Source: Deltaproteobacteria bacterium
Lineage (GTDB): Bacteria > Desulfobacterota > Binatia > HRBIN30 > JACQVA1
Direction: 5' to 3'
DNA length: 64,000 nucleotides
NCBI GenBank assembly: GCA_016210005.1
Contig: JACQVA010000158.1
Span: forward strand, 75,180 to 139,179
Shown here: positions 13,374-61,467 of the stretch, one piece after another
Layout of the letters: every line of letters begins with the position of its first letter
How positions within the stretch are numbered: position 1 is the stretch's first letter
Notes under the pieces: generated by a model
Seen by the model: only the letters and a program-made list of their open reading frames with translations
Told to the model about the DNA's origin: nothing
Database searches by the model: none
Translations under genes and position numbers: made by a program

Positions 13374-13429
13374 GATGAGACGCACGATATTGCGGTCGGC
13401 AAGTTCTGCAACCCGGCAGCGCAGCGGCC

Positions 13430-13560: not shown

Positions 13561-13576
13561 CGGACGACAGTCGCGG

Positions 13577-42455: not shown

Positions 42456-42632
42456 ATGCCGCGAATCTTCGACAACATCGACCAGTCACTGCTCCCGGCC
42501 CTGCGCGAGACGATCGAAGTATCTGACCGCGCCGACTTCTGCGTCGGCTACTTCAACCTGCGCGGCTGGGAGCAGATCGAGCGTTGCGCACGGGGTGAAC
42601 CCGACAAGTGGGCCGAGCGATGCCATTGCTGA
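42456..42632 (+). pseudogene. Truncated N-terminus of a PLD-like domain / helicase gene
   Basis: [41 protein letters not shown] is the characteristic N-terminus of PLD-helicase proteins; ends after ~58 codons where hsdR begins. RBS AGGAGA upstream. Confidence 0.45.
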
Positions 42633-45280: not shown

Positions 45281-46815
45281 GCCGCGAGCAACTGGCGAAC
45301 GACATCTGGCGCGCCTGCGACATCATGCGGCGCGACAACAACTGCGGCGGCGTCATGGAGTACCTCGAGCACCTCTCGTGGGTGCTCTTCCTGAGATTCC
45401 TCGATGAGCAGGAGACGATCTTCGAGGCAGAGGCCGGCATCGCTCGGCGCAAGTACACGCGCATCCTCTCGGGGCCGTACCGCTGGTCGAACTGGGTCAG
45501 CTCGGCGTTGGGCGAGAAGGACGAGAAGACCGGCAAGCGAAAGTCGCCGAAGTGGACGGCGGAAGACCTGCTCCGGTTCGTCCACGGCGACCTCCTGCCG
45601 CACCTGCAGAGCTTGTCTGGCTCGCCCGAGCGCGAGGTGATCAAGGGTATCTTCTCCGACCGCAACGTCATCGTGTGCGCGTCGCCGTACAATCTGAAGG
45701 ACGTGTTGGAGATCGTCGACGGCATCGACTTCACGAACCAGGACGACATCCACACCGTCTCGCACGTGTACGAAGGGCTGCTCCAGAAGCTCGGCAACGA
45801 GAACAAGCTCGCCGGCGAGTTCTATACGCCGCGACCGGTGATTCGGTTCGTCGTCGACGTGGTAGCCCCACAGCTGGGCGAAACGGTGTACGATCCCGCA
45901 GCTGGCTCCTGCGGCTTTCTTGTACAGGCGTACGAACACATGAAGGGTCAGGAGAAGAGCCGTCGCGACCACGGGCGCCTGCAGCGCGAGACGTTCGTCG
46001 GCCACGAGAAGAAGTCGGTGCCAGCGCTGCTCGGCCTGATGAACATGGTTTTGCACGGCGTGATGACCCCCGACATCCGGCGGCGGAACACTTTGGAAGA
46101 AAACATCCGGAGCGTGTCCGAGCGTTTCGACGTTGTGCTGACCAACCCGCCGTTCGGCGGCACCGAGAACGCGCAGATCCAGCAGAACTTCCCGGTGAAG
46201 TCGAACGCGACTGAGCTGCTGTTCATCGAGCACGTCATGAAGAAGCTGAAGCCGCGTGACGGCGCGCGTTGCGGCATGGTCGTCCCAGAGGGAACGCTCT
46301 TCCGCGGCGGCACGTTCGCCACGGTAAAGGCGGACCTGCTCAAGGACTTCAACCTCCACACCGTCGTCAGCCTTCCGCCGGGCACGTTCGCGCCATACTC
46401 CGACGTGAAGACCGGTCTGCTCTTCTTCGAACGTCCCGGCCCGACGAAAGAGACGCTCTACTACGAGCTATCCATTCCGGAAGGCCTGAAGAAGTTCAGC
46501 AAGGGCAGTCCGATCGCCGATGAACACTTCGCCGAAGCAGGCGAGGTGTGGCGGTGTTGGGATGCCTACCGTCGCGGCAACGGGCGCAGACCAAAGCCTA
46601 CCGAGAGTGCCTGGATCGAAACTGCCGAGGCTCTGGCGCAGCGCGGCTATGACCTGTCGGCCAAGAACCCGAACCGCCCCGAAGGCGCCAAGCTCCCGCA
46701 CCCAGCGGAACTCACCGCGAGCCTTCTCGAACGGAACCGTGAACTGCATGCGATTCTCGAAAACCTGCATGCGATGTTGAGTAACGGTGAACAAGAGGCA
46801 GTTGAGGGGCCATGA
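45277..46815 (+). CDS. hsdM: Type I restriction-modification N6-adenine DNA methyltransferase M subunit
   Basis: FYTPRPVIRFVV, DPAAGSCGF, VLTNPPFGG motifs; ATGA overlap with hsdR. Confidence 0.9.
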   Translation: MSREQLANDIWRACDIMRRDNNCGGVMEYLEHLSWVLFLRFLDEQETIFEAEAGIARRKYTRILSGPYRWSNWVSSALGEKDEKTGKRKSPKWTAEDLLRFVHGDLLPHLQSLSGSPEREVIKGIFSDRNVIVCASPYNLKDVLEIVDGIDFTNQDDIHTVSHVYEGLLQKLGNENKLAGEFYTPRPVIRFVVDVVAPQLGETVYDPAAGSCGFLVQAYEHMKGQEKSRRDHGRLQRETFVGHEKKSVPALLGLMNMVLHGVMTPDIRRRNTLEENIRSVSERFDVVLTNPPFGGTENAQIQQNFPVKSNATELLFIEHVMKKLKPRDGARCGMVVPEGTLFRGGTFATVKADLLKDFNLHTVVSLPPGTFAPYSDVKTGLLFFERPGPTKETLYYELSIPEGLKKFSKGSPIADEHFAEAGEVWRCWDAYRRGNGRRPKPTESAWIETAEALAQRGYDLSAKNPNRPEGAKLPHPAELTASLLERNRELHAILENLHAMLSNGEQEAVEGP

Positions 46816-48101
46816 CCTTGGGAAACGGCGCAGCGAGTGTGGCCGCAGTTCCACCGGCGGCTGATCGAGAGGCGCGCGGCGCGCCCTGGGAACTACCGTG
46901 GGGTTGGGAGTGGATTCCGCTTGGAGACCTCTGCCACCTGGTTAACGGGCGGGCCTTCAAGCCGAGCGAGTGGTCGGATGTGGGGCTCCCTATTGTTCGG
47001 ATTCAGAACCTGAACGATCCTTCGAAGCCCTTCAACTACTTCAATGGGGAGCCGAGCCCGAAACACCTCGTCAACGATCGCGACGTCCTCATCTCCTGGT
47101 CCGGAACGCCGGGCACGTCGTTCGGCGCGTTCCTGTGGAACCGCGGCAGGGCACTCCTGAACCAGCACATCTATCGAGCGGACCTCGACCATGAACGAAG
47201 CGAACCATTGTATCTCGTCCACGCCGTGAACGTGAGGCTTGATGAGATGATCCGACGCGCGCACGGCGGAGTGGGCCTGGGACACATCACCAAGGGCGAA
47301 CTCGAACGAGTCCGTCTCCCGATTCCGTTTCCGCAAGAGCCAGAACGATCCCTGGACGTCCAGCGCCGCATCGTGGCGCGGATTGAGGCGCTGCTGGCCG
47401 AGATGAAGGAAGCCCGTGCCCTCGCCGAGGACATCCGCAGCGACACCGACCGGGTCATGGATGCTGCGGTGGAGGAAGCAATGTCCCAGTTGGGGCCGGG
47501 CAGGCAGGCACTGATTGAGGTGCTCGACGGAAAGCCACGAAATGGTTGGTCGCCGCAATGCGACAATGATCCGGCCGGCGCGCCCGTGCTAAAGCTCGGT
47601 GCCGTGCTAGGCTTTCGCTTCAACCCAGGGGCGATCAAGTACACGAACATCAAGGTCGACCGCAAAGCTCACTACTGGCTGAACCCCGGCGACATCCTAA
47701 TCTCACGGAGTAACACCCCGGATTTGGTGGGCCACGCGGCCATCTACGGCGGGGAGCCGCATCCCTGCATCTACCCAGACCTGCTCGTGCGTATGCGCGT
47801 CAGAACTGATGCGGCAGACGCACAGTTCGTCGTCTACTGGTTGCGCAGCAGGGAGGCGCGCGAATACGTCGCCGCGCACGCCAGCGGCGCGAGTTCTACG
47901 ATGAAGAAGATCACGCAAGGCGATGTCTGTGAGCTGCCGTTCCCGTACGTCTGCGTCGAGTTGCAGCGAGCAATCGTGGCGCAGCTCGACACGGTCCAAA
48001 CCGAGGTCAACGAAATGTGCCGACTGCAAGCTCATGACGCGGAGTTGCTCGATCAGGTGGAGCAGGCGATCCTGGAGCGGGCGTTCCGGGGAGAGCTGTG
48101 A
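46812..48101 (+). CDS. hsdS: Type I restriction-modification specificity subunit
   Basis: Two target-recognition-domain halves with conserved central and C-terminal helices (...LQRAIVAQLDTVQTEVNEMCRLQAHDAELLDQ); overlaps hsdM stop. Confidence 0.85.
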   Translation: MTLGNGAASVAAVPPAADREARGAPWELPWGWEWIPLGDLCHLVNGRAFKPSEWSDVGLPIVRIQNLNDPSKPFNYFNGEPSPKHLVNDRDVLISWSGTPGTSFGAFLWNRGRALLNQHIYRADLDHERSEPLYLVHAVNVRLDEMIRRAHGGVGLGHITKGELERVRLPIPFPQEPERSLDVQRRIVARIEALLAEMKEARALAEDIRSDTDRVMDAAVEEAMSQLGPGRQALIEVLDGKPRNGWSPQCDNDPAGAPVLKLGAVLGFRFNPGAIKYTNIKVDRKAHYWLNPGDILISRSNTPDLVGHAAIYGGEPHPCIYPDLLVRMRVRTDAADAQFVVYWLRSREAREYVAAHASGASSTMKKITQGDVCELPFPYVCVELQRAIVAQLDTVQTEVNEMCRLQAHDAELLDQVEQAILERAFRGEL

Positions 48102-48191
48102 TTACGGCAAACGATCGAATACATCTTCGCATCTCCGGGAAGACCCAAGCCTCGCCATGTGGTACGAGGAGGGGCCAATGAGGACAGGCGA

Positions 48192-48992
48192 ATGACAGGG
48201 GCAACACCTCAGGTTCGTCTTATAGAGGCGTACCGTGCACCGGTTGGGCCGGCACGAATGCTGGGCCGGAGGACCGAGTCGACGCATGAGACCCGCCGAT
48301 ATCTTCAACGCCGCGTCCGGGAGCGACTGCGCATCGCTTCCAGCGAGCGGCAGATTGAAAGCTACGTTGATGAGCTTCGAGCCACTGGCTTCGATGTAGG
48401 TGGCATCGCAGCGGCAGCTCAGCAGAGCCCACCGCGCCCCTGGGAAATCGGTGAGGCGCTGGCTGAAACCCTCCTGGAGGATCACGAAGAAGCGTACTTT
48501 CCGTGGCCACCAGCGTGGGACAAGCGCACTGAATCAGCGAGCCTGCAGGGTCCAGACTTGGTTGGCCTACACGCGCCGAACCGAGCCCCGCGGCTGCTGT
48601 TCGGCGAAGTGAAGACCTCGTCGGATGTGGACGCGCCACCGAGTGTGGTGACCCATCGAGACGACGGTCTCCGGAGTCAGCTCCTGCGGATTGTCACGTC
48701 TGAGCGGCGTCGGCAGACACTGGTGGCCTGGCTCTCGGTGCGAGCTCGCAACCAAAGTTGGCAGGGAGCATTCAATGCAGCGCTTCGCGCTTATCTCGGG
48801 GACCCCAGTAACGCCGTTGTGATCGGCGTGCTACTGCGAGATACGTCGCCGACCGAAAGAGACTTGGAAACCGTCAAGTCGGCACTCGATGCGTGCGCTA
48901 CGACCTTTGAGCTAGCAGTGCTCGCCTTCTATTTTGCGCTGGCCATCAAGGAGTGGCCGGAGGCCATCACTGGCACAGAGGACGCTCCGTAA
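48192..48992 (+). CDS. PD-(D/E)xK-like protein, candidate Hachiman HamA (DUF1837-like)
   Basis: GPDLVGLHAPNRAPRLLFGEVKTS resembles a D...E-V-K nuclease motif; ~267 aa; stop overlaps the start of the downstream helicase (TAATG). Confidence 0.45.
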   Translation: MTGATPQVRLIEAYRAPVGPARMLGRRTESTHETRRYLQRRVRERLRIASSERQIESYVDELRATGFDVGGIAAAAQQSPPRPWEIGEALAETLLEDHEEAYFPWPPAWDKRTESASLQGPDLVGLHAPNRAPRLLFGEVKTSSDVDAPPSVVTHRDDGLRSQLLRIVTSERRRQTLVAWLSVRARNQSWQGAFNAALRAYLGDPSNAVVIGVLLRDTSPTERDLETVKSALDACATTFELAVLAFYFALAIKEWPEAITGTEDAP

Positions 48993-51900
48993 TGCCACCG
49001 CCTACTGAGGCCCTGGCCAGTTCAACGCTCCGAGAGGCATTCGGAACGGAGCGATATCGGCAAGCCCTCGGAGCATCGCGGGCGTGGTTGCTGCGCTCCG
49101 TGCTGGATCAAGTTGCCGCGGGCGATTCGTCGCAACTCGCAACGCTAGTAGACGAGGATGCGCTTCTGATTGAGAGAGCTCTCGCCGTAGCGGAGCTGTC
49201 GGCTTTAGAGCTGTTGGACGAATGGGCCAATGATCCAAAGGGACGCCGGGCCGCGTTATTTCGTGAGGCAGCGAGCGATGCATTTTATCTGGCCCGCGCG
49301 GTTCCGCTTCCACCCGACACAGATGAGGCCCTAAAAGCGTTCCTGCGCCTCGTGTCTTTTGCTGTTCTTGGAGACCGATCTGCGGATGCGCGTCGCTGGT
49401 TGCACGAGCATCCGTGGCCGAAGCCTGATTCGGATGCGCCGTGGGACGCGCGGGTGTTCCAGTTTGCCACCGACGCCTTCCTGCGAGTCGTTCGCAAGGA
49501 GGGCTGGCAGGATCTCCATCAGGTGGCCAAGGCAATTGGAGAACTCCGAACCCTTCAGACGACTTTCGAATCGTCCCATCTTAAGGACAGTGGCGACTGT
49601 GTGGATCGAGCCGCCCTCGAACTCGTCTCTCTCTATCACTTTGCGAAAGCCGTGGAGACCTTGGCCTCATATGCTGCGAAGGGTACGCCGACAAGTGTAG
49701 TCGATGAGCTGAAGTTCCATTACGCGCGTTCGATTCGGGCTGCTGGTGCCGCTGCGATCTTCGAACTGGAGATCCTCCTCCGATGGGTGCGTGCTGCGTG
49801 CCTCCAGGTTGCGCAGAACTCGGTCTGGTGGCTGCTCCGATCCTTCAATTCTCAGATCTCTCAGCACGTTCGGAACCTCGCCGCAGAAGCAAACGACCGG
49901 CCTCTACTGGAGCTGCTACCGCCGCAACGTCGAGCGCTACTCGACGAAGGGCTCCTTGATCCTGCCAACCGAGCGGTAGTTGTCGAAACACCAACGTCGA
50001 GCGGCAAGACGCTCCTCGCCGAGTTTCGGATTCTTCAGGCCCGGAACAGCTTCCCCAAGTGCTGGGTTGCCTACCTCGTGCCCACACGTGCTCTCGTGAA
50101 CCAGATATTGCTGCGCCTGCGTCGTGACCTGGGGCCACTGGGTATCCAAGTAGAGAGTGCGACTCCAGCCATCGAGATCGACGTCTTCGAGGAGGAGCTT
50201 CTGGTTGTGGCAGACGAGGTCGATGTTCTCGTGACCACACCGGAGAAGCTGGACCTGCTTGTGCGGAGCCGTCAACGCGGTCGACCGCTTGGTCTCGTTG
50301 TTCTTGATGAGGCCCACAACCTGGGCGAGGGTGAGCGCGGATTGCGTGCTGAACTTCTTCTCTCCACTCTGAACCGAGAATGCCCCGACGCCCAGTTTCT
50401 CTTGCTGACGCCCTTCGTACCGAACGCTAGCGAACTGGCAACGTGGCTAGACGAGCAGCGTTCAAAAGCGATCGTCGCGCTTGATTGGCAGCCAAACGAC
50501 TTCACTGTTGCCTACGCCTACGCAACGGGCCAGCGTCGCAGCTGGGAACTTCGCCTACGAACGCTGCACACGAGCCGCCCGGGTATAGAACTGGACGAAG
50601 AACTGGTTCTATCAGGGACGCCATCGCCTCTTGATATCCCCGTGTCGAAGGCTCGATCAAAGAGCGCGACAGCGGCTGCGATTGCGAAGTCTCTGTCGTC
50701 GCGCGGCACAGTCATTTTGCTCGCGTACTCCCCCCGGGACACTTGGAGCATTGGGGAACTGCTGTCGAAGAACATGCCCGACGTTGATCCTCCAAAGGAT
50801 CGAATCGATCTGGTTCAGCGATTCCTGGCCACTGAATTGGGCAGCGACTTTCAGCTTTCTGCTCTGCTATCGAAAGGCATCGCCGTGCACCATGCGGGGC
50901 TGCCTCCCGATGTTCGGTTCTTGATTGAATGGCTTGCCGAGGAGGGAGAGATTCGGGTTCTTGTGGCGACGACGTCACTCGCCCAAGGCGTGAACTTCCC
51001 GGTTTCGTCTGTCGTCCTCGCTACGCATCAGCTGTATCAACCGTACGCCGGCCGCCAGGCCATGGCGCCGGCAGCGTTCTGGAACATCGCCGGGCGAGCT
51101 GGGCGAATCTTTCAAGAGACTCTTGGGCTCATCGTTTTCGCTTCTGTGGACGAGGAAGCCAAGGAGATCAGGGAATTCGTCGGACAGAACGTGACACAGC
51201 TCGCTTCGACCCTTGAAGCGATGGTTGAAGAGGTTCTGCAGCGCGGATGGGACCTCAACCTTGCGTCACTCGTCCGCAGCGATCGGCGCTGGTCTAGCTT
51301 CGTGCAGTATCTGGCACATGCCTATCGGTTGGCGGCCGACCATGGCAAGTTCATCGCCGATACAGAGAAGCTACTTCGAGGCACTCTCGGCTATCGCCGT
51401 CTGGCCGAGTCGCGACCCGTCGTTGCAGAGCAATTGGTCGACTCTGCCCGAGCCTACGCGGAGACATTGGCGAAGATGGGGCCGGGCATCGTGTCGCTGG
51501 TCGATACCACCGGTTTCTCCGGAGAATCGATCTTGGAACTGCTGTCCCGCAAGGAGCAGATTCCCAGCGACCCGACAGCATGGGTGCCGGGGAAACTCTT
51601 CTCCGGCTCAGTGAACGAGCTTCAAGGTATCATCGGGGCGCTCCTGCCGGTTCGAGAGTTACAGTTCGAGGCAGGTGGTGGAGCTGGGGGAAATGAGATC
51701 GCCACTGTGATTTCAAAGTGGGTGCTCGGGCGTTCCATCCGGAACATTGCCGAAGATCACTTCCAGGATGGTGGTGACATCACTGCGGCCATAACGGAAT
51801 GCTGTCGTGGGCTCTTCCAGCGACTGATCCAGCCCGCAGCATGGGGCCTCGGCGCGGCGCAAGCTCTCGCCAGCATCGACACGGCCACGCTCTCTCCTGA

Positions 51901-52189
51901 GCAGGTCGAGGAGGTACGAACGCTACCAGCAATGGTCTATTACGGCGTGGACACGGTTCCTGGCGTGCTTATGCGATCTCTCTCCGTACCGCGCTCTGTG
52001 GCGGTACCGCTAGGTGAACGATTTGCGAGGGAGACTGCGGGAGGAACGGGGCCGCGGTTGCCACGGGCGCGCATATGGCTGGAGCAGCAGCCTGTGGCCA
52101 CGTGGGAAGCCGTGCGGCGGCAGGCTGCGGCAGTATCCGGAGCCGACTACCGACGAGTGTGGCGAATATTGGCCGGTCTGGACCGGTAG
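48992..52189 (+). CDS. SF2 Ski2-like DEAH-box helicase, candidate Hachiman HamB
   Basis: Walker A VVVETPTSSGKT, DEAH box LVVLDEAHNLG, helicase C motif VLVATTSLAQGVNFP; 1066 aa; translationally coupled to upstream gene. Confidence 0.65.
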   Translation: MPPPTEALASSTLREAFGTERYRQALGASRAWLLRSVLDQVAAGDSSQLATLVDEDALLIERALAVAELSALELLDEWANDPKGRRAALFREAASDAFYLARAVPLPPDTDEALKAFLRLVSFAVLGDRSADARRWLHEHPWPKPDSDAPWDARVFQFATDAFLRVVRKEGWQDLHQVAKAIGELRTLQTTFESSHLKDSGDCVDRAALELVSLYHFAKAVETLASYAAKGTPTSVVDELKFHYARSIRAAGAAAIFELEILLRWVRAACLQVAQNSVWWLLRSFNSQISQHVRNLAAEANDRPLLELLPPQRRALLDEGLLDPANRAVVVETPTSSGKTLLAEFRILQARNSFPKCWVAYLVPTRALVNQILLRLRRDLGPLGIQVESATPAIEIDVFEEELLVVADEVDVLVTTPEKLDLLVRSRQRGRPLGLVVLDEAHNLGEGERGLRAELLLSTLNRECPDAQFLLLTPFVPNASELATWLDEQRSKAIVALDWQPNDFTVAYAYATGQRRSWELRLRTLHTSRPGIELDEELVLSGTPSPLDIPVSKARSKSATAAAIAKSLSSRGTVILLAYSPRDTWSIGELLSKNMPDVDPPKDRIDLVQRFLATELGSDFQLSALLSKGIAVHHAGLPPDVRFLIEWLAEEGEIRVLVATTSLAQGVNFPVSSVVLATHQLYQPYAGRQAMAPAAFWNIAGRAGRIFQETLGLIVFASVDEEAKEIREFVGQNVTQLASTLEAMVEEVLQRGWDLNLASLVRSDRRWSSFVQYLAHAYRLAADHGKFIADTEKLLRGTLGYRRLAESRPVVAEQLVDSARAYAETLAKMGPGIVSLVDTTGFSGESILELLSRKEQIPSDPTAWVPGKLFSGSVNELQGIIGALLPVRELQFEAGGGAGGNEIATVISKWVLGRSIRNIAEDHFQDGGDITAAITECCRGLFQRLIQPAAWGLGAAQALASIDTATLSPEQVEEVRTLPAMVYYGVDTVPGVLMRSLSVPRSVAVPLGERFARETAGGTGPRLPRARIWLEQQPVATWEAVRRQAAAVSGADYRRVWRILAGLDR

Positions 52190-52249
52190 CGCCAGCCAGG
52201 GGCCGCGTGCATGACCGGGGTGGAGTTGCAGCAGGCGATGTCTGCGAAT

Positions 52250-52392
52250 CCCCTTTCCAACGGGTCGGCGTGGACGAGCAGCGTGCTTTCGTCGCGCTCG
52301 ATGCCGTCAACGGGGAGGTCGACGAGATGTGCCGCCTGGAGGCCCGGGACGTCGAACTGCTCATCCAACACCTTCAGCGGGGAGTTGTAAGT
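52250..52392 (+). pseudogene. hsdS C-terminal remnant (~45 codons)
   Basis: ESPFQRVGVDEQRAFVALDAVNGEVDEMCRLEARDVELLIQHLQ parallels the hsdS C-terminus ELPFPYVCVELQRAIVAQLDTVQTEVNEMCRLQAHDAELLDQVEQ at 47930-48070. Confidence 0.5.
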
Positions 52393-53400
52393 ATGGCAAC
52401 GGCGGAACAGGTGAAGGCCCTCTTGAAGAGCTACTCGCAGGGCGACAGCGAGCACTTCGTCTCCGTTGCGCTCCAGATCGCCGCGCATGAGGCGCGTACC
52501 GGCAAGGGCAAGCTTGCACAGGAGCTCCGGAACCTCGTCGACGACATCAAGCGAAGAGATGCGGCGGGCAGGATTGGTGGAGCCGTGCCGATCGCGAGGC
52601 CGACGGGGGAACTGGCGGGCCTCCTGGCAGTGACCTATCCAAAGCCCCGCCTTTCGGAGATGGTCCTCAGCGACAAGACATGCGAGCAGGTCGAACGCGT
52701 CCTGCGCGAGTACCGCCAACGCGACAAACTGCGCGCACATGGCCTCTCCGCTCGTCGCAAGCTCTTGCTGATTGGACCGCCTGGCTGTGGCAAGACGATG
52801 ACCGCATCTGTCTTGGCCGGCGAGCTGAAACTGCCGCTCTTCTCTGTGCAGCTCCACGGGCTGATCACCAAGTTCATGGGCGAGACGGCGGCCAAGCTGC
52901 ACGTGGTGTTCGAGGCGATGAGACAGACGCGTGGCGTCTATTTCTTCGACGAGTTCGACGCCATCGGCGCCGATCGCGGCACCAAGAATGACGTCGGCGA
53001 AATCCGGCGCGTCCTCAATTCGTTCCTCCAGTTCCTGGAGCAAGATGACTCCGAGAGTATCATCATCGCCGCAACCAACTACGTCGGCATGCTCGATGAG
53101 GCGCTGTTTCGGCGCTTTGACGACGTCATCCGCTACGGGCGACCTGCAGACCGCCAGGTTGACGATCTCGTGCGCAACCGGCTCGCGGGGCTTCTCGTGA
53201 AACGACCCGACTGGGCACACATTTGCAAAGCCGCGGCTGGTCTGAGCCACGCTGATATTGCCCGCGCCTGTGACAACGCGGCCAAGGACTGCATCCTTCG
53301 CGGGACAAAGCGCATCAACACGGCGATGCTTGCCTCGGTTCTCGGCGAACGTCGCGGTTCGGAGCACTCTGAGGGCGCTCACGATTCGCGCGTCGGCTGA
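52393..53400 (+). CDS. Classic-clade AAA family ATPase
   Basis: LLLIGPPGCGKTMTA Walker A, VYFFDEFD Walker B, second region of homology; start MATAEQVKALL. Confidence 0.75.
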   Translation: MATAEQVKALLKSYSQGDSEHFVSVALQIAAHEARTGKGKLAQELRNLVDDIKRRDAAGRIGGAVPIARPTGELAGLLAVTYPKPRLSEMVLSDKTCEQVERVLREYRQRDKLRAHGLSARRKLLLIGPPGCGKTMTASVLAGELKLPLFSVQLHGLITKFMGETAAKLHVVFEAMRQTRGVYFFDEFDAIGADRGTKNDVGEIRRVLNSFLQFLEQDDSESIIIAATNYVGMLDEALFRRFDDVIRYGRPADRQVDDLVRNRLAGLLVKRPDWAHICKAAAGLSHADIARACDNAAKDCILRGTKRINTAMLASVLGERRGSEHSEGAHDSRVG

Positions 53401-53574
53401 TCATGGCCAACCTGCCGCATCTCTTTCCGCCGGGAACAGCGGCCGCCAAACAGTACACCTACGCTCGGGAGGTCAAAGGTAGGCCACTCAAGGTCCCAAC
53501 TCGTGATCGCGTACCACACGGGACCAAGCTGATCCACGGCCTACGAGACGCGGAACAACAACGAACAGCTCTAC

Positions 53575-53744
53575 ATCCGCACCGGCAACTCGACGCGGTT
53601 GCTGACGACGAAGGAAGCCATCGACTACTGCAAGAGTCGGTGGAAGATAGCATGATGGTGCGGCACTACGGCTTCACGGACGAGGAGTTCGACCTTTTCG
53701 CCAACTACGTCATCAGGTACCGCCTGGACGGCGAGGCGGACTGA
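53575..53744 (+). repeat. Repeat A1: degenerate AlbA_2-gene 3-prime fragment + downstream conserved ~85 bp
   Basis: ...YIRTGNSTRLLTTKEAIDYCKSRWKIA* then tgatggtgcggcactacgg...; ~90% nt identity to A2/A3. Confidence 0.7.
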
Positions 53745-54931
53745 TGCCGCGAAAACCCGCCAAGGTGAAGACATCCGAGCATGGCCTGAACTTCACCGCC
53801 CTGGTCGAAGCGGTCCGGCAGGTGCACGAGCGAAGCGCCGCCACAGCTGCTCGTGCGGTGAATGTGAGCCTCACCCTGCGTAACTGGCTCATCGGGCGGC
53901 ACATCTGCGAGTACGAGCAGCGCGGTGCTGACCGCGCCGAGTACGGCGACCGTCTGCTGGAGCGGTTGGCCGAGGCGTTGCGCCGGAGGGACGCGGACAT
54001 GTCCGCCCGATCACTCCGGCTCTACCGCCAGTTTTACCTCGTCTATCCCGAGATTTGGCAATCGGCGATTGCCAAGTCCTCAGGCAGCCACTTGTCGGAA
54101 CCGATTTGGCGGTCACTGATTGCCAAATCCAGCACAAGCGGTCTTTTCCGGGAACCGACGACTCCCAAATCAAAGACATCCCGACGACTGGGGATTGATG
54201 GGCGCCTGCTCATCGCTCGGCTTTCGTTCACCCATCTGGCTGAACTCATTGCCATCGACGACCCACTCAAACGCGCCTTCTACGAGGTGGAATGCATTCG
54301 CGGCAACTGGTCGGTGCGGGCGCTCAAGCGCCAGATCGCGACCCTGTACTTCGAGCGCTCGGGGCTCTCCACCAACAAGGAAGACCTTGCGGCGCTGACC
54401 CACGGCGCCGCCGAAGAGGCCGAGCCGAAACTCGCTATTCGTGACCCCTATGTTTTCGAGTTCCTCGGCCTTCGGCCAAAGGAGGCGGTCAGCGAATCCG
54501 ACCTGGAGGATGCCCTGCTCGACAAGCTGCAGGACTTTCTCCTGGAACTGGGCCACGGCTTCTGTTTCGAGGCGCGACAGAAGAGCATCGTCATCGGCAA
54601 GACGCGCGGCTTTGTGGACCTCGTCTTCTATCACCGCGTTCTCAAGTGCCATGTGCTCATCGAGCTGAAGGTCGACGAGTTTCGCCACGAACACCTTGGC
54701 CAGCTCAACACCTACGTCACCTGGTGTCGGCGGCACATGATGGCCGAACACGACAACCCGCCGGTGGGCCTGCTGCTCTGCACGCAGAAGGACCATGCTC
54801 TGGTGGAGTACGCGCTCGCCGGCATGGACAGCGGCCTGTTCGTCTCCAAGTACCAGCTCGAACTGCCGAGCAAGGAAGACCTGAGGCGTTTCCTGGAGGA
54901 AAAGCGCCGGGAGATGAACGACCGTGGATAA
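53744..54931 (+). CDS. DUF1016/YhcG-family PD-(D/E)xK nuclease domain protein
   Basis: C-terminal GFCFEARQKSIVIGKTRGFVDLVFYHRVLKCHVLIELKVDEF restriction-endonuclease-like core; 395 aa. Confidence 0.7.
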   Translation: MPRKPAKVKTSEHGLNFTALVEAVRQVHERSAATAARAVNVSLTLRNWLIGRHICEYEQRGADRAEYGDRLLERLAEALRRRDADMSARSLRLYRQFYLVYPEIWQSAIAKSSGSHLSEPIWRSLIAKSSTSGLFREPTTPKSKTSRRLGIDGRLLIARLSFTHLAELIAIDDPLKRAFYEVECIRGNWSVRALKRQIATLYFERSGLSTNKEDLAALTHGAAEEAEPKLAIRDPYVFEFLGLRPKEAVSESDLEDALLDKLQDFLLELGHGFCFEARQKSIVIGKTRGFVDLVFYHRVLKCHVLIELKVDEFRHEHLGQLNTYVTWCRRHMMAEHDNPPVGLLLCTQKDHALVEYALAGMDSGLFVSKYQLELPSKEDLRRFLEEKRREMNDRG

Positions 54932-55496
54932 ACATTGCCTTGCCCGAGGGGGGGATCTCTATCCGGACATCTTGTGTACCCGCCTTGGAGAAGACGCACC
55001 AGCAACGCTCACGGCAATCGGCTCCCTGGCACATCTCGCCCAACGCAAGACAGCGCTCTTCTGCTCCGCGCGCACCCCCGGCCACATCATCCTCGCCGCC
55101 TACGACCAGGCCGCGCGCTGGCGCGACGCGGGCCGCTGCGTCATCAGCGGCTTCCATTCCCCGGTGGAGAAAGAATGCCTGCGCATTCTCCTGCGCGGCC
55201 GGCAACCCGTCATCATCTGCCTCGCTCGCGGAGTGGAGGGTATGCGCCTGCCGGCCGAATGGAAAGCGGCGATGGCGGACAACCGATTGCTGGTCCTGTC
55301 GCCGTTCCCCGCATCGGAACGACGGGTGACCAAGAGCCTGGCCACGGACCGCAATCGACTCGTGGCTGCTCTAGCCGATGAGGTCGTGTTCGGCCATATC
55401 ACACCGGGCGGCCACCTGGATGAATTGAGGTGGCTCATTGTTAGCTGGCGAGTTCCCCAGCGCGTGCTCTCGGATGGAGCCGAGCTACCGTCATGA
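54924..55496 (+). CDS. DprA/Smf-like SLOG Rossmann-domain protein (stand-alone)
   Basis: ALFCSARTPGHIILAAYDQAARWRDAGRCVISGFHSPVEKECL...DRNRLVAALADEVVF matches the DprA Rossmann core; overlaps the DUF1016 gene by 8 nt. Confidence 0.6.
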   Translation: MDKHCLARGGDLYPDILCTRLGEDAPATLTAIGSLAHLAQRKTALFCSARTPGHIILAAYDQAARWRDAGRCVISGFHSPVEKECLRILLRGRQPVIICLARGVEGMRLPAEWKAAMADNRLLVLSPFPASERRVTKSLATDRNRLVAALADEVVFGHITPGGHLDELRWLIVSWRVPQRVLSDGAELPS

Positions 55497-55790
55497 ACAC
55501 CGTCGGCAAAGACCTCACCCCCCAACTCGCCATCACCTTCCACTCCCTCGATGGCAAAGACCTCTGCCGCGTCACCATCCAACCCAGCCCGCGGCCGGTG
55601 TTCATCAAGGAAGGCCAGTTCGAGCACCTGTACATCCGCACCGGCAACTCGACGCGGTTGCTGACGACGAAGGAAGCGATCGAGTACTGCAGGACGCGGT
55701 GGAAGACAGCGTGATGACGCGGCACTGCATCAACTACGACATCAAGTACCGCATGGGCGGCGAGGCGGAGGCCGAGGACGAATGACCTAC
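55493..55790 (+). repeat. Repeat A2: AlbA_2 (Schlafen-like) domain C-terminal fragment ORF (73 aa) + downstream conserved segment
   Basis: MNTVGKDLTPQLAITFHSLDGKDLCRVTIQPSPRPVFIKEGQFEHLYIRTGNSTRLLTTKEAIEYCRTRW; start overlaps DprA-like stop (ATGA). Confidence 0.7.
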
Positions 55791-56033
55791 ACGTTGACGG
55801 CGCATGCGAAGAGGGTGCTGGCGGAGAGGGAGATCCGGCTCGATTGGCTCGAACGCACACTGAACGATCCGGTGTTGCGCCGACCCGATCCGGACGATAC
55901 TTCGATCGAGCGTCTCTATCGCCCGATCCCTGAGTTCGGTGGGCGGGTGTTGCGCGTGGCGGTGAACTCCACGGTTGCACCGGCCCGCGTCGTGAGCGTA
56001 TTCTTTGACCGGAGCATGAGAGGCAAACTATGA
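55782..56033 (+). CDS. DUF4258 family protein (putative toxin)
   Basis: MTYTLTAHAKRVLAEREIRLDWLERTLNDP... DUF4258 pattern; 83 aa. Confidence 0.55.
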   Translation: MTYTLTAHAKRVLAEREIRLDWLERTLNDPVLRRPDPDDTSIERLYRPIPEFGGRVLRVAVNSTVAPARVVSVFFDRSMRGKL

Positions 56034-56248
56034 GACTCCACGTGGACCAGGAAGCCGATGCGCTGTACCTGCGCTTGGACGACTCGCCAATCGTCGAATC
56101 CGAGGAGGTCTCCCCAGGTGTGGTGTTGGACTTCAACGCCGACAATCAGGTCGTGGGCGTCGAGATTCTGCGCCTCTCCCAACGCGCCCCCGGGCTGGAT
56201 GCGGGCAAGTTGGTGTTCGAGACGGCGCGAGCGACCGCGGCGCAGTAA
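56030..56248 (+). CDS. DUF2283 family protein (putative antitoxin of DUF4258)
   Basis: MRLHVDQEADALYLRLDDSPIVESEEV...VGVEIL; 4-nt overlap with DUF4258 gene. Confidence 0.55.
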   Translation: MRLHVDQEADALYLRLDDSPIVESEEVSPGVVLDFNADNQVVGVEILRLSQRAPGLDAGKLVFETARATAAQ

Positions 56249-56311
56249 CGCCACACACCGGACCATCGGTGCATCATTGCGCCGAGTGTTTGGCGACGGC
56301 GTTGTCCACGG

Positions 56312-56866
56312 ATGACCCCGTTGACCGTTGTGGCCGGTGCTCCCAGCTACCCAGATCGATTGCGAGAGCGCCTGGGTGCAGACGCGCCCGCGGAGCTGAG
56401 GTTGGTGGGCAACCTCGACGGGCTGGACCTGCCGAAGACAGCGCTCTTCTGCTCCGCGAGCAGTCCGGGTCACACCATCCTCGCCGCCTACGACCAGGCC
56501 GCACGCTGGCGCGACGAGGGCCGTTGCGTCATCAGCGGCTTCCATTCCCCGGTGGAGAAAGAATGCCTGCGCATTCTCCTGCGCGGTCGACAACCCGTCA
56601 TCGTCTGCCTCGCTCGCGGATTGCAAGGCATGCGCCTGCCGGCCGAATGGAAGCAGCCGCTGGCGGACAATCGGTTGCTCATCTTGTCGCAGTTCCCCGC
56701 CGCGGCGCGACGGGTCACCAAGGACCTCGCCACCGACCGCAATCGCCTCGTGGCGGCGCTGGCGGACGAGGTCGTGTTCGCGCACGTCGCCCCGGGAGGG
56801 CAGGTTGATGAATTGAAGCAGCTCGTCACGCGCTGGGGCATCCCGTACCAAACGGTCGTAGGATGA
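56312..56866 (+). CDS. DprA/Smf-like SLOG Rossmann-domain protein, paralog of 54924-55496
   Basis: ~85% aa identity to the first copy over the Rossmann core (KTALFCSASSPGHTILAAYDQAARWRDEGRCVISGFHSPVEKECL...). Confidence 0.6.
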   Translation: MTPLTVVAGAPSYPDRLRERLGADAPAELRLVGNLDGLDLPKTALFCSASSPGHTILAAYDQAARWRDEGRCVISGFHSPVEKECLRILLRGRQPVIVCLARGLQGMRLPAEWKQPLADNRLLILSQFPAAARRVTKDLATDRNRLVAALADEVVFAHVAPGGQVDELKQLVTRWGIPYQTVVG

Positions 56867-56950: not shown

Positions 56951-58108
56951 ATGGATTCCGGAACGCCAACGCTGCGCTCTCGCGAGCGTTGGTACCGCAA
57001 GCTGGCGCGCCGTCCCGAATACGCTGCCGGCGTCACGCTGTTGGGATTATTGGCGGGGGTGCTCGGCTCTGTCTACAGCGCAGACATCGGGCGCGCGTTC
57101 CCATTTTCATGGATTGGTGGCACGGTTCCATAGCCGCCCGCTCTCTTCTGGGGCGCCGCGATCCTCACCGCCCTGTTCTTCTTTCTGCGCCAGGGAGCCA
57201 TTGACGCTGCTCGCCGAGAATCGGAGGAGAACCTCGGGCGTCGTTCGGATGAGCTGGTGAAGCTGATTAGCACCCTCCCTCCCAAAGGGTTTTTCTCCAC
57301 GTTCCAGCGATTGTACTGGCATTGCAGTGCCGTGCTGACAGATGTCCTCAACGTGCCGGCCGAAGAGCTGCCTGCTGCATCCGTTGAACGCGCGATTCGA
57401 ATCGTACTGAGTGAGGTTGCAGCGCTGGCGCATGACTTCGACGGCAGAGCCAGGGACGTGTTGTACGCTGCCAACATCATGCTGTTTCGGCCTGGCGAAT
57501 CGCTGCCCTCAGGAAGGACGGCATTGACCGAACGCCTACGCTTTGCCGAACCCGAAACCGACCTGACCGCCCTGGAAGGCGTCCTGGATCTGTGCGTGGA
57601 GCTTTCGACCACCACGCAAGCGGAAGACTACGGCCCCGATAAGGATCTGCAACCGATGGCGCTGCCTGTGCCCAGAGTCAAACGTAGCCCCGATGGGCGG
57701 CGAAGCCGCGTACTGCCGGGAGCGCCGCGCGCATATTCTGAACGTCTGTTGGACATTTACGCCGACACGCACACCCTGGGACAATGGTGCCGCGAGAAGG
57801 GCGACTTCAGCGAGACCGTGTGCACGCAGGTCGATGACTACTTCCGCAGCCAGCAGTCAGTGCGCAGCTTCGTGGCGGTTCCGCTGATGCAACTGCGCGA
57901 CGCGCGACCCCTGGCGGTGTTGAACATTCATCGCAACAGCGAGGGAATCCTGCGAACGAGAGCGGGATCGGACCCCGAGGTTTTGGATCAGTTCTCCGCT
58001 CTGCTCGGTCCGTTTTCGTCGACGTTGCTCTTGTTGCTGGCGCGCCTGGATCGATCGACGGCGCTCGGCGCACCATCTGTGTCGGGCAGCCAAGGGGTGC
58101 GGCATTAG
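56951..58108 (+). pseudogene. Membrane-anchored protein (2 TM + ~320-aa soluble domain) interrupted by an in-frame TAG at 57131-57133
   Basis: ORFs 56951..57133 and 57257..58108 are in the same frame; the sequence between (PPALFWGAAILTALFFFLRQ...) is a second TM helix. Alternatively a soluble protein starting at ATG 57257. Confidence 0.4.
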
Positions 58109-58351: not shown

Positions 58352-58760
58352 GTGCGCGCATTCGCGCCTCTGATCGGCGTCAACGACGACGCCACGGTCA
58401 TCGGCCTGCAGTACGATTACCAGGCCGTCCACAAGAAGAGCCGCGACGGCTACGAGCTGTTCCTCCATGACCTGTTGCTCAACAACGTCGGCAAAGACCT
58501 TACCCCGCAGCTCGGAATCACGTTCCACTCGCTCGACGGCAAAGACCTCTGCCTCGTCGCCATCCAACCCAGCCCGCGCCCGGTGTTCATCAAGGAGGGC
58601 CAGTTCGAGCACCTCTACCTCCGCAACGGCAATTCGACGCGGTTGTTGACGACGAAGGAAGCGATCGACTACTGCAAGACGCGGTGGAGGTCGGGGTGAT
58701 GCTTGCAGACGCAGCCGAGATCCCCTACCGCACGGGCCGCGGTGCAAATGGGGCGGCCGG
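58352..58760 (+). repeat. Repeat A3: longest AlbA_2 C-terminal fragment ORF (115 aa) + downstream segment
   Basis: LIGVNDDATVIGLQYDY...VFIKEGQFEHLYLRNGNSTRLLTTKEAIDYCKTRW. Confidence 0.7.
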
Positions 58761-59099
58761 ATGAAGCTGCCCAACGCGCATCTGGCGGTGGTCGAGCGCG
58801 AGAAGATCACCGGCTACCTGCTTAATCCTGCGCATCCCGATAACGGTGGCAAAGCCGCCTTCTTCCAAGCACAGGGCTTCAAAGGCAGCGACTGGCAGAC
58901 GCTGGCCGACGCCTTTCGCAAGCTGGCCGTGAGCGACGACGTCACCGAAGCTGTGGAATCAAGGCACGGTCGGAAGTATATTCTCGACGGTCGTATTGAG
59001 ACCCCAAGCGGCAAGGTGTCAGTTGTGCGAACTGTTTGGATTGTAGATCGAGGGCTTGACGCGCCGCGACTGATCACGGCGTATCCGCGTGAAGAATGA
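58761..59099 (+). CDS. DUF6883 family protein (putative toxin)
   Basis: MKLPNAHLAVVEREKITGYLLNPAHPDNGGKAAFF... typical DUF6883. Confidence 0.5.
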   Translation: MKLPNAHLAVVEREKITGYLLNPAHPDNGGKAAFFQAQGFKGSDWQTLADAFRKLAVSDDVTEAVESRHGRKYILDGRIETPSGKVSVVRTVWIVDRGLDAPRLITAYPREE

Positions 59100-59108
59100 G
59101 AGGGAGCC

Positions 59109-59345
59109 ATGATTCGCGAACACGAACGCGTAGTGCTCACAACCCCAGCCCCTAACGAAGGGCTCGAACCTGGTGACGTTGGAACCGTGGTGCACGTATA
59201 CAGGGACGGCGAGGCATATGAGGTGGAGTTCGTTGCCCTCGACGGGCACACCGCGGCGGTGGTTACCCTTGAGGCATCGCAAGTTCGGCCGGTCTCGCAT
59301 CGGGAGATCACCCACGCTCGCGAATTCTCGGCAGCTAGCTCGTGA
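59109..59345 (+). CDS. DUF4926 family protein (partner of DUF6883)
   Basis: MIREHERVVLTTPAPNEGLEPGDVGTVVHVYRDGEAYEVEF typical DUF4926. Confidence 0.55.
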   Translation: MIREHERVVLTTPAPNEGLEPGDVGTVVHVYRDGEAYEVEFVALDGHTAAVVTLEASQVRPVSHREITHAREFSAASS

Positions 59346-59348: not shown

Positions 59349-59560
59349 GTGCCAGCGCGGACATCCTCCAGACGTCACCCCGCAGCTTTCGCCATCACGT
59401 TTCGCGCCCTCGGCGGCAAAGACCTCTCCTGCGTCGCCATCCAACCCCGCCCGCGCCCGGTGTTCATCAAGGAAGGCCAGTTCGAGCACCTGTACATTCG
59501 CACCGGCAACTCGACCCGGCTGCTGACGGCGCCGGTGTTGTGGCATTGCTGGCGCAATAA
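59349..59560 (+). repeat. Repeat A4: degenerate AlbA_2 3-prime fragment
   Basis: ...KDLSCVAIQPRPRPVFIKEGQFEHLYIRTGNSTRLLTA then divergence. Confidence 0.6.
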
Positions 59561-59628
59561 ACGAATTCCCGCGAAGAACTTGGATGCCCAGCCGTGCCTG
59601 GGCTATAGGACGACAAGGGAGGCGCGGG

Positions 59629-61467
59629 ATGACTAACACGATGCGTGCGGCCGCGAGCCGCCGGACTTTTCTCAAGGCGGTGGGAGGCGTGCTCGGCGCC
59701 GCCACCCTGCCGATCGGCGCAACCCTGGCGCGGGGCGAGCGGGAGGCAACCGAGCCCGACGTGGTTGTGATCGGCGGCGGCTTCGCCGGCGTCACCGCGG
59801 CGCGCGAGCTCGGTCACGCGGGCCTGCGTGTGCTGCTGCTCGAAGCGCGCAACCGACTCGGCGGGCGTACGTTGACCACCAAGGTCGGCGAAGAGATTTT
59901 CGAGCTCGGCGGCACCTGGATCCACTCAACGCAGCCACACGTGTGGGCGGAGGCCAACCGCTACGGTCTCGAGCTCGTCGAAACCCCGGATGGGTTTCCC
60001 GAGCGGATCGTGTGGTGGGACGGCGAGCAGACGAAGGAAGCGGGAATACTGGACGCCCTACCGCTCGTCGGCTCCGCGCTCTGCGCCAGCCCCGACGACG
60101 TTGTCCCCGAAATGCCCTTGCCCGTGCTGCATGCCTTTGCGCTCCTCGACCAAGTCATGTCGAAGTTCCATGCGGAGGCAGCCACGGCCTTTCCGCGGCC
60201 GTTCGATCCGTTCTTCTCCGACGCCTGGCAGGCGAGCGACCGCCTCTCGATCCGCGATCGGCTCGACTCGATGGGCCTCTCCGCATCCCGGCGCGCGCTG
60301 CTCGAGGGCGTGCTCGGCGCTAGCGCACACGGAGCCTTCGAGGAGGCCGGCTTGGCCGACATGCTCCGCTGGTGGGCGCTGTCCGGAAGCGACCTGCAGC
60401 GCTACTCCGACACCGTGGCGCGCTTTCGCTTCCGCCAGGGCACCTCACGCCTGATCGACGCCATGATCGCCGATGGCAAGCCCGACGTGCGCCTGCAAAG
60501 CCCGGTGACCCGCGTCGTGCAAACGGGCGGGCGCGTCGAGGTCACGATCGCCGGCGGCGAGACGTTTCGCGCACGCGCCGTGATCGCAGCGCTTCCCATG
60601 AACGTTCTCGCGAACATCGACTTCTCGCCCGCGCTCGACCCGGCGAAGATCGCGGCGTCAAAGGAACGGCACGCCGGAGCCGGCGTCAAAGCCTACATCC
60701 GCGTGCGCGGCGAGGTGCCGAGGCTGCTCGCGCTCGCGCCCGAGCCCGAGCCTTTCTCGACACTGATGACCGCGCACGGCGGCAAGGACGGCGGCGTGCT
60801 CATCGGCTTCGGCACTGATCCGAAGAAGATCGACATCCACGCGACCGGCGCGGTGCAACAGGCGGTTCGGCGCTTTCTGCCGGCCGCCGAGGTCACCGAG
60901 GTCTTCGCTTACGACTGGCATCTGGATCCCTACTCGCTCGGCACGTGGTGCATTCTTCGCAAAGGACAGATGACGAAGTACTTCGCCGCTCTTCGCGCCC
61001 CCGAGGGGCTCGTGCACTTCGCCGGCGGAGACTTTGCGCTCGGATTTCGCGGCTTCATCGACGGCGCGATCGAGAGCGGCACACGCACCGCGCGCGTGGT
61101 GATCGAGCGCCTCGCAGGCAGTCTCGCGCTTGGGGCAGAGGCGGAGACGGCACCGGCGGCCACGGCGGGGGCGCCAGGCGAAGCCGCCTTCGAACCCTGC
61201 GCGGTGTGTCACTCGGTCGACGAATCGGGCAAAGCCGGCATCGGCCCGAACCTGCACGGCGTCGTCGGGCGCAAAGCCGCCAGCGACCCGTCGTTCGCAT
61301 ACTCCGAAGCGCTCCGCAGCCGCGGGATCACGTGGACCGAGAAGGACCTCGACGCGTTTCTCGCCGACCCGCAGGCCTTCATCCCGGGCACGCAGATGCC
61401 GTTCACCGGCCTCAAGGACCCGGCCGATCGCGCGGCGGTGATCCGGTTCCTGCTCAGCGCGAAATAG
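59629..61467 (+). CDS. Flavin-containing amine oxidase fused to a C-terminal class I cytochrome c domain; Tat signal peptide
   Basis: SRRTFLKAVGG twin-arginine motif; VVVIGGGFAGVTAARELGHAG FAD Rossmann; C-terminal CAVCH heme site with downstream Met ligand region. Confidence 0.7.
   Translation: MTNTMRAAASRRTFLKAVGGVLGAATLPIGATLARGEREATEPDVVVIGGGFAGVTAARELGHAGLRVLLLEARNRLGGRTLTTKVGEEIFELGGTWIHSTQPHVWAEANRYGLELVETPDGFPERIVWWDGEQTKEAGILDALPLVGSALCASPDDVVPEMPLPVLHAFALLDQVMSKFHAEAATAFPRPFDPFFSDAWQASDRLSIRDRLDSMGLSASRRALLEGVLGASAHGAFEEAGLADMLRWWALSGSDLQRYSDTVARFRFRQGTSRLIDAMIADGKPDVRLQSPVTRVVQTGGRVEVTIAGGETFRARAVIAALPMNVLANIDFSPALDPAKIAASKERHAGAGVKAYIRVRGEVPRLLALAPEPEPFSTLMTAHGGKDGGVLIGFGTDPKKIDIHATGAVQQAVRRFLPAAEVTEVFAYDWHLDPYSLGTWCILRKGQMTKYFAALRAPEGLVHFAGGDFALGFRGFIDGAIESGTRTARVVIERLAGSLALGAEAETAPAATAGAPGEAAFEPCAVCHSVDESGKAGIGPNLHGVVGRKAASDPSFAYSEALRSRGITWTEKDLDAFLADPQAFIPGTQMPFTGLKDPADRAAVIRFLLSAK

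Follow-up and report, generated by a model that had tools for sequence, protein, structure and literature searches.

Why does a bacterial defence island carry two small genes for DprA-like proteins that consist of a Rossmann domain only, and with what do these proteins work? The question arises from a stretch of 64,000 nucleotides (nt), hereafter the window, of a Deltaproteobacteria bacterium of the Binatia (GenBank assembly GCA_016210005.1, contig JACQVA010000158.1, positions 75,180 to 139,179). The first of the two genes overlaps a gene for a DUF1016/YhcG nuclease, and the original prediction, made from the sequence alone, had proposed that the two form an operonic defence unit. We found that in other genomes the DprA-like gene is instead the last gene of a three-gene restriction-like operon, which encodes a helicase-nuclease, an Eco57I/PglX-like N6-adenine methyltransferase-specificity protein and the DprA-like protein, and that the restriction core of this operon has been deleted from the window or replaced by a type I restriction-modification (R-M) system, a PDC-M23 pair and IetA. 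Coordinates of all features are collected in Table 1.

We analysed the two proteins, of 190 and 184 amino acids (aa; DprA-like 1 and DprA-like 2). As had been predicted, their genes stand alone beside defence genes and neither protein has the extensions of DprA. Pfam DNA_processg_A matches both (1.4e-10 and 6.6e-12) over profile positions ~9–161 of 212 only; the SAM and the C-terminal DML1 domains are missing from both, and with 184–190 aa they do not have the SAM–Rossmann–DML1/winged-helix architecture (~280–370 aa) of the housekeeping protein. The NCBIfam dprA equivalog TIGR00732 gave 32.5 and 33.9 bits against a cutoff of 191, so that by score neither is housekeeping DprA/Smf. The best defence-profile match of both was PADLOC PsyrA (1e-17 and 2e-20, positions 97–250 of 398), while PADLOC ShosA matched DprA-like 2 (2.5e-4) and did not match DprA-like 1. 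The two proteins are 72% identical (126/174), the ~85% given in the original prediction being too high; at the DNA level the codon alignment gives 74% identity, and the central 300 nt give 83%. A dN/dS of 0.31 between them indicates that the window copies evolved under purifying selection. The second gene follows a DUF4258/DUF2283 pair as described earlier, but the 'membrane protein' placed downstream of it is a frame interrupted by a TAG codon.

The window proteins belong to a large family. A homology search returned 2788 homologues at E<1e-5; nearly all of the best 120 are 160–200 aa long, and these 120 are 58–86% identical to the query and come from Deltaproteobacteria, Binatia, Acidobacteria, Verrucomicrobia, Chloroflexi and other groups. 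At least 576 matched stretches in a collection of species-representative (GTDB) genomes encode the family, and exhaustive searching with a profile yielded, at E<=1e-30, 516 clusters (50% identity), most of them of 170–230 aa. In the family alignment the length of ~184 aa and both termini are conserved across phyla. For genes of this family, automatic labelling as 'DNA-processing protein DprA' is, thus, misleading. Neither plasmids (PLSDB, tblastn, E 1e-10) nor phages (INPHARED, tblastn, E 1e-6) yielded a match to the family, and we therefore rejected plasmid or phage carriage, or an anti-defence role, for it.

We compared an AlphaFold2 (AF2) model of DprA-like 2 (31-sequence alignment, pLDDT 94.3) with known structures using Foldseek. 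Over its full length the model is most similar to ShosA (PDB 8ZVA; query-normalised TM-score, TMq, 0.83; E 2.7e-12), followed by the Rossmann domains of DprA (3UQZ, 0.80; 3MAJ; 4LJR) at TMq 0.74–0.80; the alignment spans only the Rossmann part of 3UQZ and 3MAJ (target-normalised score, TMt, 0.42–0.54). LOG, the Moco-carrier MCP and the SLOG domain of ThsA reached a TMq of just 0.39–0.53. The proteins also do not have the motifs PGGxGTxxE and GGGxxGxMG of LOG and ThsA, with which they share the 'PGG' tripeptide alone. The window proteins are complete Rossmann-only members of the DprA clade of the SLOG superfamily, and not LOG-like.

Invariant in the family (alignment A2, numbered as in DprA-like 2) are eight arginines, R143, N144, C47, H78, C85 and C99; R145, which completes an RNR motif with R143 and N144, is present in both window copies. 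This motif corresponds to R143 of Helicobacter pylori DprA and R234 of ShosA, which bind single-stranded DNA (ssDNA). The arginine of the DprA 'GSR' loop (H. pylori R52, ShosA R139) is shifted to a 'CSAR' equivalent, in which it is Arg in copy 1 and Ser in copy 2. As seen from the model, C47, H78 and C99 lie at or just past the C-terminal ends of three beta-strands and C85 in the following helix; in a sequence alignment these positions replace the glycine-rich loops of Streptococcus pneumoniae DprA. The invariant Cys/His set could be a metal or catalytic site.

We fetched 85 loci encoding relatives of the DprA-like proteins and searched them with the window proteins. The C-terminal ~30 residues of the open reading frame (ORF) that ends at position 53744 (...YGFTDEEFDLFANYVIRYRLDGEAD) recur upstream, on the same strand, in 44 of these loci, and in most of the 44 the match ends a reading frame of ~1100 aa. 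PADLOC PDLC03628, 'type IIG restriction enzyme-methyltransferase', matches this ~1100-aa partner over its full length (E=0); the partner has a Pfam Eco57I methylase domain, an invariant NPPY motif and weaker similarity to PglX and DrmMI. With the full-length protein as query, a type IIG-like gene or its remnant was found upstream on the same strand in 56 of the 85 loci, and 17 of the 29 loci without one have less than 4 kb of upstream sequence. The methyltransferase C-terminus is kept in 51 loci; it abuts the DprA-like gene in 10 of them (gap of at most 50 nt) and is separated from it by 0.4–5.7 kb in the other 41. Immediately upstream of the methyltransferase gene, 28 of the 29 loci with sequence there encode a ~1150-aa PLD(HKD)-SNF2 helicase (Pfam PLDc_2, SNF2-rel_dom and Helicase_C; best PADLOC matches 'HKD+Snf2', 1e-44 to 1e-48, and DrmD, 1e-33). 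Both core genes are intact in many related loci (for example L008, L014, L041, L047, L062 and L086), and no fourth conserved gene was found in the related loci either upstream of the helicase or downstream of the DprA-like gene. Among solved structures the methyltransferase had no match and the helicase generic SNF2 matches only.

The linkage was also seen in the reverse direction. Among metagenomic loci retrieved with the methyltransferase and having at least 3 kb of downstream sequence (n=40), 27 (68%) carry a DprA-like gene downstream on the same strand. We considered that the other 13 might hide a divergent DprA-like gene; an hmmsearch with the family profile found none in them, and this was rejected. 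Pairwise distances between DprA-like proteins correlate with those between methyltransferases (Mantel r=0.53, p=5e-4), which equals the correlation between methyltransferase and helicase. The window itself has no intact core, and each of its DprA-like genes lies downstream of a methyltransferase C-terminal stub and cargo.

In some genomes the DprA-like domain is fused to a methyltransferase-type protein. The fusion clusters (P0144, P0170, P0201, P0223, P0227 and P0269; loci L169 and L170) comprise proteins of 688–759 aa, in which the DprA-like domain is C-terminal and no other Pfam domain was found. The N-terminal ~500 residues of P0144 are homologous to methyltransferase residues 18–133 and 483–773, the first half of the methylase domain (30% identity to the L014 methyltransferase, E 4e-39). 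P0144 has 'GGFDVVLGD' in place of NPPY, and P0170 is built in the same way; the type IIG-like N-terminal halves of the fusions are methylase-dead. The helicase gene is missing beside these fusions, one of which is on its own while another directly follows an RmuC gene with a 4-nt overlap. That natural fusions join the two argues that a methyltransferase-type protein and the DprA-like domain work physically together. Upstream of another fusion, at a distance of ~2.2 kb and on the other strand, lies a RecQ helicase gene.

The space between the methyltransferase and the DprA-like gene is a slot for variable cargo. A Pfam scan of the 77 ORFs in this slot found DarT with Macro (DarTG, 4 loci), DUF3644 (4 loci), DUF2283/DUF4258, DUF1016, GmrSD, AAA_21/AAA_15 ATPases, DUF3800, HNH, RhuM, DUF488, Lit peptidase, Mrr_N, DUF932, nucleotidyltransferase, Unstab_antitox and an IS630 transposase. 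DUF1016 is, thus, one among more than 20 interchangeable cargo families. It stands next to the DprA-like gene in about 8 of 85 loci, three of them with pseudogenes or fragments (besides the window, the same slot holds it in L026, L022, L019, L072, L064 and L088). DUF4258/DUF2283 lie upstream of the DprA-like gene in about 5 loci (among them L078, L070, L083 and L088), L079 (~2.4 kb upstream) and L057 (DUF2283 only) being less clear. Cargo ORFs often begin at the methyltransferase stop, or overlap it, and their own end falls on the DprA-like start. The 8-nt overlap of DUF1016 and DprA-like 1, which the original prediction gave exactly (stop TAA 54929–54931, GTG start at 54924), is therefore a usual feature of the slot and not peculiar to DUF1016. 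The neighbourhood comparison that had been proposed as a check found the pairing in only a small share of loci, which largely refutes a dedicated two-gene unit. For the DprA-like proteins beside DUF1016, the closest relatives are not those that stand beside DUF1016 in other genomes. Since DprA-like similarity does not track cargo type, cargo is exchanged independently of the DprA-like gene, and we rejected a joint transfer of the two.

A comparable arrangement is the hmaABC operon, in which variable defence cargo is embedded in a multigene defence operon (PMC11232893). Hotspots of the hma type also hold variable cargo between conserved genes of one operon, but their bracketing genes differ; the cassettes described here, in contrast, carry stubs of the bracketing gene, and they can be arranged in tandem and in permuted order, the DprA-like gene being duplicated in such arrays.

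How such an operon decays can be seen in the window and in its relatives. The first ~40–48 codons of the helicase survive right before hsdR and mark the left end of a decayed system; the ~17-kb island (42.4–59.6 kb) therefore occupies the 'ghost' of a single PLD-SNF2/methyltransferase/DprA-like system. In L074, L078, L068 and L032 an internal deletion joined the helicase N-terminus to the methyltransferase C-terminus, with cargo and DprA-like gene intact. Because these four deletions are independent, loss of the core with retention of the DprA-like end is recurrent.

Each cassette of the window is preceded by a composite junction repeat, made of a 3' fragment of an AlbA_2 gene (R) and the last ~20–30 methyltransferase codons (T). 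Such repeats are kept at 75–92% nt identity in three genomes, namely the window and the loci L086 and L088. In L086 (Candidatus Binatia, GCA_023150935.1, 7100–10600) a cassette array with a near-complete pseudogene copy of the AlbA_2 gene accompanies an intact helicase and methyltransferase. L088 (ENA ERZ25039477 contig_77005, 7700–13900) has two DprA-like genes and the cassette types of the window in a changed order: DUF4258/DUF2283–DprA-like, then DUF1016–DprA-like, again with an 8-nt overlap, then DUF6883/DUF4926. Its DUF1016 cassette is 88.8% identical in nt to that of the window over 1.5 kb, and its junction from the DprA-like gene into R 85.5% over 690 nt. Both arrays contain cassette types of the window, but differ from it in cassette order and chromosomal context. 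On the simplest reading, the cassettes were duplicated and permuted by unequal and homologous recombination via the junction repeats and the bracketing genes. We considered AlbA_2 as the true partner of the DprA-like protein and rejected it, as the fragment occurs only in the window and its close relatives L086 and L088; it is a 5'-truncated cargo gene acting as a junction repeat. Two flanking genes of 627 aa each (40389–42272 and 59584–61467), considered as a duplication, are unrelated and encode an aldehyde ferredoxin oxidoreductase and an amine oxidase-cytochrome c, respectively.

It has been reported that ShosA promotes recombination between repeats down to 6–8 bp (PMC11961720). The bracket of methyltransferase 3' end and DprA-like gene might likewise be a site at which defence genes are captured and shuffled without an integrase, the DprA-like protein, a homologue of a RecA loader, itself stimulating the recombination at short homologies by which cassettes are swapped, duplicated and permuted. 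The tight slot junctions, the conserved junction repeats, the changed cassette order between the window and L088, and a DprA-like gene that is duplicated and outlives the restriction core are all consistent with this, although we consider it distinctly improbable.

What, then, would the DprA-like protein do? We favour, with a probability of roughly 0.6, that it is the surviving end of a restriction-like operon with a cargo slot and serves as a ShosA/PsyrA-like, ssDNA-binding safeguard or modulator. The 184-aa protein would bind ssDNA beside the methyltransferase subunit and limit or repair, by RecA-dependent repair, the self-inflicted DNA damage caused by the linked PLD-SNF2 nuclease; alternatively, it may gate the activity of this nuclease machinery. 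Contacts with RecA and the methyltransferase, like the safeguard role, are proposed by analogy. ShosA, which binds both ssDNA and RecA, promotes recombination and neutralises its toxin although it does not bind the toxin itself (PMC11961720, PMC12961424), and RqlI/PsyrA restrains the genotoxic RecQ-like helicase RqlH, RqlI homologues also being found unpaired with RqlH (PMC4670107).

Several observations weigh against this proposal. Intact DprA-like genes persist after deletion of the core, as in the window, so that either they have a function that does not depend on the core or the decay is only recent. No remnant of the core was found in 12 of ~53 DprA-like loci with at least 4 kb of upstream sequence and, conversely, 13 of the 40 methyltransferase/helicase loci have no DprA-like gene within 3–10 kb downstream; the DprA-like protein is therefore not essential for the core. 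Shared host phylogeny may partly drive the Mantel correlations. The known DprA-like antitoxins pair with phosphoribosyltransferase (PRTase) toxins and not with restriction-like enzymes. The GSR-equivalent arginine is Ser in window copy 2 and in its closest relatives. Finally, proteins of the family are ~30–35 aa shorter at the C-terminus than canonical Rossmann domains. The shortened region is the site of dimerisation and RecA contacts in S. pneumoniae DprA, which makes RecA loading uncertain.

It is also possible, though unlikely, that the DprA-like protein is a sensor or activator, which perceives phage ssDNA, replication intermediates or the loss of RecA binding and recruits or licenses the nuclease-methyltransferase complex. 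The DprA-type fold with its conserved RNR motif would suit such a role, and its fusion to a methyltransferase half that is catalytically dead points to a regulatory module; moreover, the interaction of ShosA with RecA is sensitive to ssDNA, and a role as sensor within its system has been proposed for ShosA (PMC12961424). A DprA-like gene is, however, missing from one third of the cores (13/40), and orphan copies that remain under purifying selection after loss of the core are hard to fit to a pure activator. Improbable, in our view, is a pocket that binds or processes a nucleotide-derived small molecule, as the SLOG domains of LOG and ThsA do. Membership of the SLOG superfamily, a FAHxxPGG motif whose 'PGG' loop resembles the PGGxGTxxE loop of LOG, and the invariant cysteines and histidine where DprA has Gly-rich loops speak for a ligand, whereas the far lower TMq to LOG, MCP and ThsA-SLOG than to DprA and ShosA, together with the eight invariant arginines and the conserved RNR motif, speaks against one; related loci have no conserved nucleotide cyclase, TIR or other signal generator nearby.

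A dedicated operonic two-gene defence of DUF1016 and DprA-like protein, acting by abortive infection or against plasmids, is very improbable. The overlap recurs in L088, and DUF1016 is the upstream neighbour in about 8 of 85 loci; yet the L088 cassette is a close DNA relative of the window cassette and not an independent case, more than 90% of the family has other neighbours, the DprA-like proteins beside DUF1016 do not group together, tight junctions are common in the slot, and DUF1016 already is a stand-alone candidate system, PDC-S02. That the genes are truncated or duplicated pseudogenes of housekeeping dprA, which their Pfam match and public annotation would suggest, is refuted by the family data: length and termini conserved across phyla, ~34 bits against 191, a dN/dS of 0.31 and a consistent defence-island context. 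The earlier view that they are not 5'-truncated housekeeping copies thus held.

We compared the operon with known systems. ShosA of ShosTA is the best structural match, a DprA-type Rossmann domain in a defence locus with an RNR motif containing R234. It differs in its length (~328 aa), its N-terminal SAM domain, an extra C-terminal helix for stability and dimerisation, and its PRTase toxin partner; the window proteins have no SAM, and no PRTase was found in the window island or among the 25 commonest cargo families, so the locus is not ShosTA. PsyrA/RqlI of PsyrTA/RqlHI is the top defence sequence-profile match, and its unpaired homologues resemble the orphan copies seen here. It differs, however, in having ~400 aa with N-terminal and helix-turn-helix extensions and a RecQ-like helicase-PRTase as partner; the profile match of the window proteins is partial, and no RecQ or PRTase gene was found in the window island, so the locus is not PsyrTA either. 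With canonical DprA/Smf (3UQZ, 4LJR) the family shares the Rossmann core, Pfam DNA_processg_A and the RNR motif, but the family has CSAR/CSAS in place of the GSR loop and SGFHSPVE in place of SGxAxGID, and the genes lie in defence islands and not in a competence or housekeeping context.

The core genes follow the same logic of a methylase with a motor-nuclease as class 1 DISARM (DrmC PLD, DrmD SNF2, DrmMI methylase) and the MtsC-MtsD pair of MANTIS/BR-type-2, as described in bioRxiv 10.64898/2026.09.23.753747 and PMC12839542. In contrast to these, no DrmA/DrmB and no DUF499/DUF3780 were seen and the gene order differs. We therefore rejected identity with MANTIS/BR-type-2; nor is the locus class 1 DISARM, whose core genes DrmA (DUF1998-associated helicase) and DrmB were not found in the window. 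Term searches of the two sources found no mention of a DprA-like third gene, and full-text searches, which covered open-access papers and bioRxiv preprints, brought up no account that links a DprA-like gene with restriction-like systems of the type IIG, PglX-like or SNF2-PLD kind.

DprA-like safeguards in defence loci are a known kind of component; the partner system, the minimal architecture, the defined cargo slot and the fusions appear to be new. DprA-like safeguards (ShosA, PsyrA/RqlI) are coming to be seen as a recurrent part of bacterial immunity but, to our knowledge, have so far been known only beside PRTase toxins. If our proposal is true, the safeguard theme extends to a Rossmann-only form, to a system of methylase and motor-nuclease and to hundreds of mostly uncultured species. 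The slot between methyltransferase stop and DprA-like start is easily recognised and could be mined for new defence genes. The window illustrates the build-up of a defence island inside the 'ghost' of a decayed system, and cautions that tight gene overlap in a defence island does not make a dedicated system.

Table 1. Features of the island and the evidence for each (positions in the window; R, AlbA_2 part and T, methyltransferase part of the junction repeat)
Feature	Position	Strand	Evidence and remarks
PLD(HKD)-SNF2 helicase, 5' remnant (first ~40–48 codons)	42456..42575	+	Within ORF 42342–42632, directly before hsdR; 63–67% identity to L014/L041 helicases, residues 1–48/52, E 4e-16 (tblastn)
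Type I R-M	42608–48101		PADLOC/profile scans
Hachiman-like PDC-M23 pair	48159–52189		Between type I R-M and IetA
IetA without IetS	about 52390–53400		PADLOC 3.6e-72; long ORF form 52075–53400
Composite junction repeats (R with T)	53562–53744, 55496–55782, 58352–58760	+	Repeats, alignment A1
R copy 1, last ~90 nt of a small AlbA_2 (Schlafen-like) gene	53562..53650	+	Direct-repeat family D3, alignment A1, tblastn with the 115-aa AlbA_2 fragment
T copy 1, C-terminal ~30 codons (...YGFTDEEFDLFANYVIRYRLDGEAD, stop)	53646..53744	+	Stop overlaps DUF1016 start; PADLOC REase_MTase_IIG positions 1068–1095/1100, E 3e-5; 56% identity to L014/L062 methyltransferases, E 2e-5 (tblastn); agrees with consensus C-terminus of alignment A4
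DUF1016/YhcG PD-(D/E)xK nuclease, 395 aa, cassette 1 cargo	53744..54931	+	Pfam YhcG_C 5.7e-55 and DUF1016_N 4.9e-27, both above cutoffs; member of PADLOC candidate single-gene system PDC-S02 (5.3e-127, residues 14–393)
DprA-like 1, 190 aa	54924..55496	+	Rossmann-only DprA-clade protein; GTG start, credible because the N-terminus aligns with that of the family
R copy 2, 73-codon AlbA_2 3' fragment	55493..55716	+	Begins on the DprA-like 1 stop (ATGA); Pfam SLFN_AlbA_2 5.7e-4; repeat family D1
T copy 2, degenerate C-terminal codons (...INYDIKYRMGGEAEAEDE, stop)	55723..55782	+	Repeat D4; 55% identity to L014 methyltransferase residues 1098–1117 (tblastn)
DUF4258, cassette 2 cargo	55782–56033	+	Pfam 5.1e-7
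DUF2283, cassette 2 cargo	56030–56248	+	Pfam 2.9e-18
DprA-like 2, 184 aa	56312..56866	+	Rossmann-only DprA-clade protein
Protein with two transmembrane (TM) segments: N-terminal hydrophobic helices and ~283-aa soluble domain	56951..58108	+	Single frame split by in-frame TAG 57131–57133
R copy 3, longest AlbA_2 fragment (115 codons)	58352..58701	+	Pfam SLFN_AlbA_2 1.5e-6; repeat D1
DUF6883/DUF4926 cargo	58761–59345		After R copy 3; Pfam DUF6883 1.5e-32, DUF4926 2.8e-21
R copy 4, AlbA_2 fragment alone	59358..59578	+	Repeat D1, 70% identity; alignment A1; closes the cassette array on the right, directly ahead of the amine oxidase/cytochrome c gene

As for the other features of the island, DUF4258 and DUF2283 form a toxin-antitoxin-like pair. 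The frame downstream of DprA-like 2 may be either a pseudogene or two ORFs, and its 283-aa soluble part had no Pfam, PADLOC or NCBIfam match. No known RNA was found in the island and no tRNA across the whole window, and promoter and terminator scans gave numbers of sites not above those in shuffled controls. The Hachiman-like candidate system PDC-M23A/B consists of a 277-aa protein and a 1078-aa HamB-like DEAD-box helicase (PADLOC E 4e-61 and 0).

The methyltransferase stub makes up the C-terminal third of the 113-aa ORF that follows IetA (53403–53744), a mosaic whose middle, downstream of the first ~40 residues, is an out-of-frame reading of the AlbA_2 fragment. The real start of IetA is probably near 52390 (MATAEQVK...). 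In the N-terminal extension of its long ORF form, the segment 52225–52368 matches the HsdS C-terminus (47910–48056) with 61% identity over 49 aa, and the extension looks like a second C-terminal restriction-gene stub at a cassette boundary.

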